Origin: Kordiimonas sp.
GTDB taxonomy: Bacteria > Pseudomonadota > Alphaproteobacteria > Sphingomonadales > Kordiimonadaceae
DNA length: 64,000 nucleotides
NCBI GenBank assembly: GCA_965199355.1
Contig: CBDARB010000011.1
Span: 148,588 to 212,587 of the forward strand
Direction: 5' to 3'
Positions 56,651 through 59,807 of the stretch are shown piece after piece. How positions within the stretch are numbered: position 1 is the stretch's first letter; every line of letters begins with the position of its first letter. The notes beneath the pieces were generated by a model. That model worked only from the letters and a program-made list of their open reading frames with translations, made no database searches and had not been told where the DNA came from. A program made the position numbers and the translations under genes.

Positions 56651-56689
56651 AGGCCTGCGCCATTTTATCAATCAAAAAGGAACAACAAC

Positions 56690-57724
56690 ATGACTGTATT
56701 TATAGGACTAGACGTCTCTCTGGCAAGCACGGCAGTCTGTGTACTGACGGGTAAGGGTGAGATTCTCAGGGAGGCAAAGGTGCCCAGCGAGCCGGCAGCG
56801 CTTGTGGGTTTTGTGCACAGCCTGGGGTGCGATGTCGCCAGCATTGGTCTTGAAGCAGGGCCCCTGTCCCAGTGGTTGTACAAGGGCCTGACGGAAGCGG
56901 GTTTCGAGACGGTGCTGATGGAAACACGCAGAGTGAAGGCCGCGCTGAAGGCCATGCCGATCAAAACAGATCGCCGGGATGCGGAAGGGATTGCCCGCCT
57001 GCTGCATCTGGGCTGGTTCCGGCCAGTCCACTGCAAATCCGTTTCGTCGCAGGAGATACGGGCGCTGCTGACGACCCGCCATGCCATCCAGAAGGCCCTG
57101 AAGGCTCTCGAACTGTCGGTGCGGGGTATCCTGCGCAATTTCGGTCTGAAGATGGGCAAGGTGTCGAAGGGGCGGTACGCGGCACGGGTGCGCGAGCTTG
57201 TGACCGGCAACCCTATGCTGGAAGCTGCCGTCGAGCCTGTCCTGCACGTGCGCGACACGCTGCGCAAGGAGATGGCAGGTCTGGAGAAAAAGATTAAAGG
57301 GCTGGCGACGGCGAACCCGGTCTGTGACCTGTTAATGACCATGCCCGGTGTAGGGCCGGTCGTGTCGCTGACCTTCCTGTCCGCAGTGGATGATCCCGGG
57401 CAGTTCCGCCGATCGAAGGATATCGGTCCATGGGTGGGGCTAACGCCGGGCCGGGACCAGTCGGGGGAACGGGATGTTACCGGCCGCATCACGAAGGCTG
57501 GCGATGTCGGCCTGCGAACCGCCCTGTATCAGGCGGCGACGGTCATGCTGAACGGGGGCAGATCCAACTGGCTGAAAGCCTGGGCGTTGCGTCTTGCTGC
57601 CCTGCGGGGCAAGAAACGTGCAACGGTCGCCCTTGCCCGACGCATCGGTGTGGTGCTGCACCGGATGATGGTGGACGCAACGGTGTTCTGCTTCACCCGC
57701 GAAGAGGCTGTCCGCTCTGTATAA
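56690..57724 (+). CDS. IS110 family transposase/recombinase
   Basis: DEDD RuvC-like residues in FIGLDVS, GLEAG and KTDRRDA; C-terminal TMPGVG and WVGLTP..DQSGE (Ser motif). ATG 56690 follows AAAAGGA. Confidence 0.96.
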   Translation: MTVFIGLDVSLASTAVCVLTGKGEILREAKVPSEPAALVGFVHSLGCDVASIGLEAGPLSQWLYKGLTEAGFETVLMETRRVKAALKAMPIKTDRRDAEGIARLLHLGWFRPVHCKSVSSQEIRALLTTRHAIQKALKALELSVRGILRNFGLKMGKVSKGRYAARVRELVTGNPMLEAAVEPVLHVRDTLRKEMAGLEKKIKGLATANPVCDLLMTMPGVGPVVSLTFLSAVDDPGQFRRSKDIGPWVGLTPGRDQSGERDVTGRITKAGDVGLRTALYQAATVMLNGGRSNWLKAWALRLAALRGKKRATVALARRIGVVLHRMMVDATVFCFTREEAVRSV

Positions 57725-57789
57725 ACCCGTTCAAGCAGCGTACGAGAAGAAACAGGAGGTTTGGCCGCGTCTGACAGGGGTCGGCCACC

Positions 57790-58010
57790 AGTGTCCCTGC
57801 CGGGACGCAGTCCCCGATGATGCACGCAGGATGCCTTGTCGCCGGACCCCGCACATATGTAGCGCAGGGTTCGAGCACGCCCCAAAGATAGGCACTCGGG
57901 AACTGTATTGGACAAGGTATGAAGTTGGCGGCCCTTGCCCTGCATGGCGCCGACCACGGACGGAAGCACGTACCCGGCGGTGATACAGGAAGGTGACCTG
58001 ACTCCAGAAG
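57790..58010 (+). ncRNA. Putative bridge/seek RNA in the IS110 right end (boundaries approximate)
   Basis: Contains AGGATGCCT matching the target flank, ATGGCGC and ACGGAAG matching the two IS ends, and several hand-identified hairpins. Confidence 0.6.
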
Positions 58011-58441
58011 GCAAAGGCAACGATCCACACAGTCAAAATCCAGGCTTTCCCCCTGTATACAGGGACGCCGACAAGACCCTCTCCCGTGAACCGTCAACCG
58101 TGTCGCGCCGGCTAATTGTGTGATAAAGGTGCTTGACATCAACTGCCCCATTACGGAAGCACGCCCCAAAGATAGGCACTCGGGAACTGTATTGGACAAG
58201 GTATGAAGTTGGCGGCCCTTGCCCTGCATGGCGCCGACCACGGACGGAAGCACGTACCCGGCGGTGATACAGGAAGGTGACCTGACTCCAGAAGGCAAAG
58301 GCAACGATCCACACAGTCAAAATCCAGGCTTTCCCCCTGTATACAGGGACGCCGACAAGACCCTCTCCCGTGAACCGTCAACCGTGTCGCGCCGGCTAAT
58401 TGTGTGATAAAGGTGCTTGACATCAACTGCCCCATTACGGA
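57874..58441. repeat. Perfect 284-bp tandem duplication of the IS right end
   Basis: 57874-58157 equals 58158-58441 by eye; the ORF track shows identical ORFs offset by 284 (57935 vs 58219). Confidence 0.95.
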
Positions 58442-59807
58442 AGGCATCCTTTTCTTTTGATCCCCAACACAGCTTCCCGGGCAAGGCACAAAAGCGATGT
58501 TCGTTTGTCAGTCTCAAGCGATATGCTTCGGAGTTAAAGTTCTCACTGCGGATAAAAGAGAAGTCATAGGTAGCATAACTGATGTTGAGGTTGTTCGCAT
58601 TTAGTAACGGAAACCTGCTTATCAAAGGAAGTTGGTAGTATTTGCCTGTAACACCGAGTGTAACAGTTTGGCGGCGGTCCTGGTCGCCCATGTTGGTGAC
58701 GTTGGCTCTATTGATGCCGTCAAAGCGTTCGTCGACGTCATTGAGAGAATATTGCACATAAGCAATCGGCTCAAAATTGTCTTTGTCGATTATCAGCTGA
58801 TATCCAAGCGTCGCTTCGACCGAAAGGTTCGTATTTATTTGCTCGACGATGTTGTCTCCGACACCGTCACCGTCCGTGTCCTCATTTTCAATATTTCTGT
58901 TGCGGGTAAAGCCGACCAATGCACCGTCAGGCTTGGCTTTCAATAGGTCAGCAGATGTTTTCCTTAACTTGAAGTGTTTGAAAAAGGGGTTTTGTTGAAC
59001 AAATGTTTTTTCTGGTTTGATGCAGGAAAAAACAGGCTTTTCCTTCTCTCCATTGTCCTGAGGTAAGGGGGCAAGGAAGTTTGCAAGTAATTTGCCTGCT
59101 TCTGCTAGGGTTTTTTCTTTCAACAACCGTAGTTCGATCTCCTTCGAGCCATATCTTTTGTTCCCTGCAGTGGTTTTGTTTTCTGGCGACTGCAAAAGTG
59201 TCTCCACTTGTTCAAACAGTTTGGATACACGCAGCGATGCGTTGACTTCGTCGAGCATTTTGTTTCTGTCTAGGCTGTAAGCGATGTTTTTCTCCCCGAA
59301 AGCATCCGTGACGCCAAATGGATGCTTTTGTTTTTCGCCCATTTTTAGCACCCACCGCAAATAGCCCTCTGCGAGCCTTCGTAACTGCATGACATGTTTT
59401 TGTTTCTCCAGGAAAAAGTCTTTATTTTCAATTGGCTGCCCTGAGTTGTCGATATTATCAAGTTCCCAGTCAAAGGTAGAGAATTGCTCGCTTCTTAGAA
59501 AAGCTGCGGTCGTAATCTCGTCGCCGTCGGGGCCGTCACGAAGGCTGGGTGCCTTGCCATCAAGGTCAGGCGTAACCAATTGTTGCATCAGGGAAAGGAC
59601 AACGGTGTTGCTAAACTTGGTGCCAGAATTTGACTGCGCGCCTGATGCTGTGCAGTACAGGTTATATGTTGGATTAGAAAAGACCGACTGTTCCAGTTTA
59701 AAGCCTTGAAAATTGAATGGTTTGGTATTCGCTTTTGTATCTGTGGATGACACCGGTGTTGCCGCTAAAAGGCTAGCCACAATAACGGCGCTTGATCGTG
59801 TGAACAT
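58442..59807 (-). pseudogene. 5' fragment of the IS-interrupted secreted/outer-membrane protein gene
   Basis: Signal peptide MFTRSSAVIVASLLAATPVSS; AT-rich; DTDGDGVGDN motif; frame reads into the IS after ...SKEKDA. Confidence 0.8.

Follow-up and report, generated by a model that had tools for sequence, protein, structure and literature searches.

A multicopy IS1111-group insertion sequence of Kordiimonas sp. with a predicted two-loop guide RNA and recurrent tail duplications

The window analysed here, 64,000 nucleotides (nt) of forward-strand DNA from Kordiimonas sp. (assembly GCA_965199355.1, contig CBDARB010000011.1, positions 148,588 to 212,587), carries an insertion sequence of the IS110 family. 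This element is very probably an ordinary RNA-guided member of the IS1111 group, and it is one of 29 near-identical copies that were found when the whole genome (4.8 Mb, 17 contigs) was searched. The canonical unit of 1624 bp consists of AG, a 154-nt left end, a recombinase gene encoding 344 amino acids (aa) and a 433-nt right end. The copy in the window measures 1908 bp instead, because 284 bp of its tail are duplicated. While the element is a new example of an already known type, the pattern of such tail duplications among its copies is its most interesting aspect.

Element ends, insertion sites and family

The following features define the element and the open reading frame (ORF) that it interrupts:

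56534-56535, plus strand: left copy of the AG core, junction ...CACCAA-AG-ATACCG
56536-56689, plus strand: left end (154 nt), which includes the ribosome-binding region of the transposase gene (tnp) and, at 56539-56550, the left subterminal inverted repeat CCGTAATGGGGC
56690-57724, plus strand: tnp, the transposase or bridge recombinase gene (344 aa), the sole long ORF of the region, with a DEDD RuvC-like N-terminal domain and a Transposase_20 C-terminal domain
58442-58443, plus strand: right copy of the AG core, junction ACGGA-AG-GCATCC
56124-56533, minus strand: 3′ part of the interrupted host ORF
58444-59807, minus strand: 5′ part of the interrupted host ORF

The ends are fixed by the other genomic copies. 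A BLAST search of 56000-59000 against the whole genome returned many copies with 99.8-100% identity, and the similarity among them begins at 56530-56533, not at 56651, where a first-pass annotation made from the sequence alone had drawn the left end. Exact probes located 29 left ends, every one starting AGATACCGTAATGGGGC (56534) after unrelated flanks whose ends tend to CCCAA, and 75 right ends, all reading ...CCCCATTACGGA and then AG: 29 of the latter lead into host DNA and 46 into internal element sequence. The left terminus reads AG-ATACCGTAATGGGGC and the right terminus ...GCCCCATTACGGA-AG, with AG at 29/29 left and 29/29 right host junctions. A perfect 12-nt inverted repeat (CCGTAATGGGGC, 56539-56550; GCCCCATTACGG, 58429-58440), separated from the two AG cores by 3 nt and 1 nt, is present where the first-pass annotation had seen no clear subterminal repeats. 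Its length falls within the 7-17 bp of the IS1111 group, and it is kept in alphaproteobacterial relatives, whose loci have the same termini (AG-AT[GA]CCGTAATGGGGC ... GCCCCATTACGGA-AG).

Comparison with other genomic copies, a check that the first-pass annotation had itself proposed, gave a different left boundary and refuted the one it had drawn: the true left end lies at 56534, 117 nt further out in all 29 copies, and is 154 nt long rather than under 40 nt. Both junction strings that had been quoted are present in the window, CGCCATG-AGGC-CTGCGCC at 56644-56661 and TTACGGA-AGGC-ATCCTT at 58435-58451; the right one is a true boundary, the left one is not. Likewise, only the AG of the proposed AG(GC) core holds, at all 75 right-end junctions, and the AGGC at 56651 is a chance internal match. 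The right side of the original picture was sound: all 29 host junctions read ...CCCCATTACGGA-AG-flank, as at AG 58442-58443, and the single-copy 3′ non-coding end, which had been estimated at about 435 nt, measures 433 nt (57725-58157) and is followed by an exact 284-bp tandem repeat. Although AGGC occurs at both originally proposed junctions and removal of 56651-58445 likewise keeps the host frame open, an element with a left end at 56651 shorter than 40 nt, a 4-nt AGGC core and no inverted repeats is hardly tenable, given that the 117 nt to the left of 56651 belong to the repeated unit in 29/29 copies, that relatives conserve a terminus at the equivalent of 56534, that the 12-nt repeat pairs 56539-56550 with the right end and that only AG is common to the 75 right-end junctions.

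The target logo from the 29 copies is CCCAA-AG-GCATCCT, and the targets lie mostly inside genes. When the element is removed from the window (56536-58443, with one AG kept), the host ORF reads ...KEKDAFGDAFEGDKIG... in frame on the minus strand; without the element this ORF comprises about 590 aa, with a DAFGDAF repeat at the insertion point. No Pfam domain was found in it and no homologue among 30 related genomes; because of the missing homologue, the comparison with an empty site was moved to queA at another copy. To the left of the copy at C10:312385, the flanking DNA codes for QueA as far as about residue 215, and the remainder of queA adjoins the right end of a different copy (C5:415748). 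Joining the two flanks with exactly one AG yields a 362-aa ORF that aligns without gaps over 357 residues with the QueA of a congener, and the frame is broken with zero or two AGs. This confirms a shared core of 2 nt without further target duplication, as the first-pass annotation had stated. The two queA halves (C10:312386-313002 and C5:415294-415749, loci L018 and L108) adjoin different copies on different contigs; this indicates that copies have exchanged flanks by recombination, in an IS-mediated rearrangement, unless the arrangement reflects a contig misjoin.

The assignment to the IS110 family, which the first-pass annotation had made, is borne out by the Pfam domains of the transposase, DEDD_Tnp_IS110 (PF01548, E 4.4e-13) and Transposase_20 (PF02371, E 6.2e-23). 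Its C-terminal half aligns with the solved bridge recombinase structures of IS621 and ISCro4 (E about 1e-12; 1.7e-12 for the IS621 transposase structure 8wt6). More specifically, the 344-aa translation contains GLTPGRDQSG, which fits the GL-P----S(t)G motif defined for IS1111-group transposases (PMC11187229) of 330-350 aa. Its closest homologues are proteins of 346 aa with 72-81% identity, and proteins of 65-81% identity are common, chiefly in Alphaproteobacteria. The short left end (154 nt), the long right end (433 nt) and a guide RNA downstream of tnp agree with the definition of the IS1111 group, in which the bridge RNA lies in the right end (PMC11208160).

The guide RNA and the circular form

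The first-pass annotation had also placed the guide RNA in the long right end, and conserved structure and guide covariation are indeed located there. Comparison shows that the right end encodes a predicted two-loop guide RNA of the bridge RNA or seekRNA type, with these parts:

about 57800-57977, plus strand: bridge/seek RNA gene, about 180 nt, predicted by RNAalifold on 23 relatives, outer helix 57800-57804 / 57973-57977
57828-57837, plus strand: target guide T, AGGATGCCTT, reverse complement of the top strand A-AG-GCATCCT (core and right target half), fitting the logo
57880-57889, plus strand: target guide B, CCCCAA-AG-AT, identical to the left target half, the core and the first 2 nt of the left end
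57916-57920, plus strand: donor guide on the 5′ side of its loop, GGTAT, reverse complement of ATACC in the left end
57960-57966, plus strand: donor guide on the 3′ side of its loop, ACGGA-AG, an exact match to the terminal 5 nt of the right end and the core

When the terminal 400 nt of 24 relatives are aligned with the window, a conserved block is seen at about 57790-57980, which is broken by two short hypervariable segments, in the window AGGATGCCTT (57828-57837) and CCCCAA (57880-57885), the latter followed by an invariant AGAT. RNAalifold folds this block into four helices, with one internal loop that binds the target and one that binds the donor, both enclosed by the outer helix and each capped by an inner hairpin, and the guide pairs are placed on the two sides of the two loops. 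In the predicted structure, 97.3% of cells are paired and 12 of 34 pairs are changed on both sides; none of 500 shuffles reached the observed values, and slid controls had 30-45% paired. The RNA segments of the target loop, AGGAUGCCUU and CCCCAAAGAU, spell both strands of CCCAA-AG-GCATCCT, and those of the donor loop, GGUAU and ACGGAAG, spell the left and right termini of the element.

The guides vary with the DNA that they match. In relatives, the segment equivalent to guide T varies with the element's own right flank, and the 5-6 nt preceding the invariant AGAT of guide B vary with the left flank. Over 23 elements, the mean match of the guides to their own flanks is 5.8 and 5.5 nt, compared with 2.5 and 2.4 nt for the flanks of other elements, and none of 20000 permutations reached the observed total (p < 5e-5). 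The donor guides covary as well: relatives with ATGCC in the left end have GGCAT on the 5′ side of the donor loop, those with ATACC have GTAT or GGTAT, and in nine relatives with variant right ends (L025, L032, L040, L043, L048, L049, L074, L076 and L096), the 3′ side varies accordingly (ACAGAAG, ACCGAAG, ATGGAAG, ACGAAAG). Guide T (57828) precedes guide B (57880), in the window as in the relatives, which is the order of the top-strand and bottom-strand matches in IS1111-group RNAs (PMC11187229). The AG-AT of guide B may represent a handshake-like extension into the left end. A donor-loop match that had been considered earlier, ATGGCGC to a ‘left end GCGCCAT’, was rejected, since it depends on the misplaced left end.

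By analogy with the family, the complex of recombinase and RNA would join the right and left ends at AG, giving a circle with the junction ...CATTACGGA-AG-ATACCGTAATG..., and this circle would then recombine with a target AG, leaving one AG per junction and no other duplication. The junction proposed in the first-pass annotation, ...GGAAGGCCTGCGCC..., is wrong with respect to the left end; the corrected expectation is ...CCCCATTACGGA-AG-ATACCGTAATGGGG.... No such junction of right end, AG and left end (RE-AG-LE) is present in the genome assembly, and the exact junction pattern gave no match in metagenome contigs. With a degenerate pattern, RE-AG-LE junctions of related elements were found in four metagenome contigs, two of them of element length: OZSS01031875.1 (L120, 1665 nt), whose termini overlap by 77 nt and which contains a homologous ORF of 350 aa, and MWWJ01005527.1 (L121, 1638 nt), which has the length of a single element. 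Either assembled circles or tandem copies could account for these two contigs, and together they suggest that the predicted type of junction exists in the family.

Joining of the ends might also create a promoter. In the alignment of relatives, CTTGAC is conserved at a distance of about 22 nt from the right end; in the window, TTGACA occurs twice (58133-58138 and 58417-58422), and joined ends would put the conserved TTGACA 17 nt upstream of GAAGAT. The same motif, conserved in all relatives about 20 nt inside the right end, could drive outward transcription into the flanking host DNA.

Several observations weigh against an RNA-guided element as described here. The fold of the single sequence is no more stable than that of shuffles (z = -0.72), so that the case for the RNA structure is a comparative one, and a search of 56400-58600 against Rfam 15 returned no matching family at E up to 10. 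In several relatives, the guides fit the element's own flank poorly, which may reflect off-target insertion or flank exchange. In the integrated copy, no sigma-70 promoter was predicted, and the −10 element at the junction (GAAGAT) is weak. Finally, the RNA and the circle of the element in the window are predictions from DNA sequence.

Tail duplications

In the window, the duplicated tail forms a tandem repeat of two 284-bp units with 100% identity:

57874-58157, plus strand: tail duplication unit 1, containing guide B, the donor loop, a −35-like TTGACA (58133-58138), the right inverted repeat (58145-58156) and an internal right end (58157)
58158-58441, plus strand: tail duplication unit 2, beginning ...ACGGA-AG-CACGCC (AG 58158-58159), with TTGACA (58417-58422), the inverted repeat (58429-58440) and the outer right end (58441)

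Such structures are common in this genome. Plain 1624-bp units account for 11 of the 29 copies, and the other 18 carry one or more extra tails, each of which extends from an internal AG to the right end. Altogether, these 18 copies contain 46 junctions of right end, AG and internal sequence at 15 distinct breakpoints, and the duplications are 97-1301 bp long. No head duplication was found among the 29 elements, which have 29 left ends. The breakpoints are biased to the 3′ part of the element (Mann-Whitney p = 3e-4) and weakly resemble the right half of the target (p = 0.02); no similarity to the left half of the target or to the left end was detected. AG sites inside the RNA gene were used more often (5 of 11) than those elsewhere (10 of 79; Fisher p = 0.017). 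The same tail variants occur at several loci, the 1908-bp form at three of them, which suggests that there are hot spots or that the expanded forms are mobile.

Two further arrangements were observed. An alternating array of 57051-58157 and 57577-58157 units, with a period of 1688 bp, extends over more than 9 kb to the end of a contig (C14:521425-530883) and resumes at the start of another (C5:1-7646), with at least nine units in each part. An atypical duplication at C10:147434-149669 contains a junction (C10:148786) of the B-guide DNA CCCCAA-AG-AT (57880-57889) with a left-end-like AGATCC at 57560, and it resembles an event of the left-junction type in the gene of the guide itself.

The duplication in the window would have arisen when a right end was joined to the internal AG at 57874, and the most likely route is a one-ended recombinase reaction of the right end (the LD side) that was resolved in place. 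The exact use of the right end and of AG argues for the recombinase and against generic slippage, and the restriction of the duplications to the tail argues for a one-ended reaction of the right end. Related events have been described: transfer from LD-RT to a new RT was shown for CazIS110-1 (10.1101/2025.10.25.684509), the matches retained by tandem repeat units of IS110 loci are reported in a 2026 preprint to be almost exclusively LD matches (10.64898/2026.08.14.744561), and in ISPpu9 aberrant AG sites are used as well and circles of the tail type arise (PMC12288879). It counts against this account that the mechanism is read from the junction sequences. Whether the genome as a whole constitutes a natural record of frequent one-ended LD-side bridge recombination, in which guide-encoding DNA served as a pseudo-substrate and variants with two right ends are still mobile, is a more far-reaching proposal that we regard as possible, yet doubtful.

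The same tails could be produced without any one-ended reaction, if a whole element inserted at an internal AG of a resident copy and one of the two heads was subsequently lost by homologous deletion. This nested-insertion route yields exactly the observed junction of right end, AG and internal sequence, and homologous exchange between copies does occur in the genome, as the queA halves beside different copies illustrate. However, the symmetric product, a duplicated head, does not occur (the 29 elements have 29 left ends), the genome contains no nested intermediate and the internal sites are only weakly like the target, which makes this route unlikely. An origin of the tandem tails and of the long alternating arrays in assembly, for example from concatemeric reads of small circles, is more improbable still: the largest array does sit at two contig ends (the end of C14 and the start of C5), so that its length is not fixed, but every one of the 46 junctions shows the right end and AG exactly, identical variants are found at several loci whose flanks differ, and the duplications, at 97-1301 bp, are short and located within well-assembled contigs.

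Recent expansion and comparison with known systems

The element was not found in 31 other species of the genus, and a megablast search of PLSDB gave no match. Its GC content is 60.5%, compared with 52% for the genome, and its copies differ by 0-2 bases. Taken together, this indicates that the element is probably a recent arrival that expanded in a burst. It is otherwise an ordinary, recently expanded insertion sequence, and the host genes that it has disrupted include queA and the ORF in the window. Two aspects lend it wider significance. First, the corrected ends, the target logo and the map of the guides provide a fully specified natural bridge system of the IS1111 type, with recombinase, RNA of about 180 nt, donor and target, which is open to direct testing or reprogramming. 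Second, the genome supplies base-resolved natural cases of the tail duplications that were lately reported for IS110 loci, and these bear on the question of whether the two ends of an element react independently.

The closest overall likeness is to the IS1111 group itself (ISEc11, ISPa11, ISKpn4; PMC11187229, PMC11208160). Common to both are the DEDD recombinase, which comprises 330-350 aa and contains the GL-P----SG motif, the subterminal inverted repeats and the unequal ends, of which the left is short and the right long. In both, the guide RNA is encoded downstream of tnp and has its top-strand match 5′ of the bottom-strand match, and insertion is sequence-specific without target duplication. 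The element in the window differs from these in its target, CCCAA-AG-GCATCCT, which lies mostly in genes, and its closest proteins are only 72-81% identical.

IS621 (PMC11208160, PMC13626964) resembles the element in its RNA, which has two loops and a left and a right guide each for target and donor, its 2-nt core, the handshake-like extension (here the AG-AT that follows the left-target guide) and a homologous C-terminal domain. In contrast, the RNA of IS621 is encoded in the left end, its inverted repeats are only 2-3 bp long and its guides come in the opposite order. By the IS621 convention, the core is written CT; the correspondence of AG with this CT, to which the first-pass annotation had drawn attention, is a matter of strand convention only, and a closer precedent is ISPpu9, with AG at both ends (PMC12288879).

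ISPpu9 of Pseudomonas putida (PMC12288879) shares with the element in the window an AG crossover at both ends, recombination at aberrant AG sites and the occurrence of tail-type modules, in ISPpu9 for example the ssr9-'tnp circle. However, ISPpu9 targets REP sequences, and its extra module has end-like boxes of its own (A'/B'), whereas the duplicated tails described here start at internal AG sites without a left-end-like box. Finally, the tail duplications match a class of events that was already described in the 2026 preprint on tandem IS110 loci (10.64898/2026.08.14.744561): there, too, the boundaries of the repeat units consist of the authentic right-end (LD) terminus next to internal sequence that is unrelated to it, and partial modules undergo duplication in situ. 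Compared with that study, the present case concerns a single genome and an element of the IS1111 type, with extra tails in 18 of 29 copies, 15 base-resolved AG breakpoints and an alternating array of more than 9 kb.

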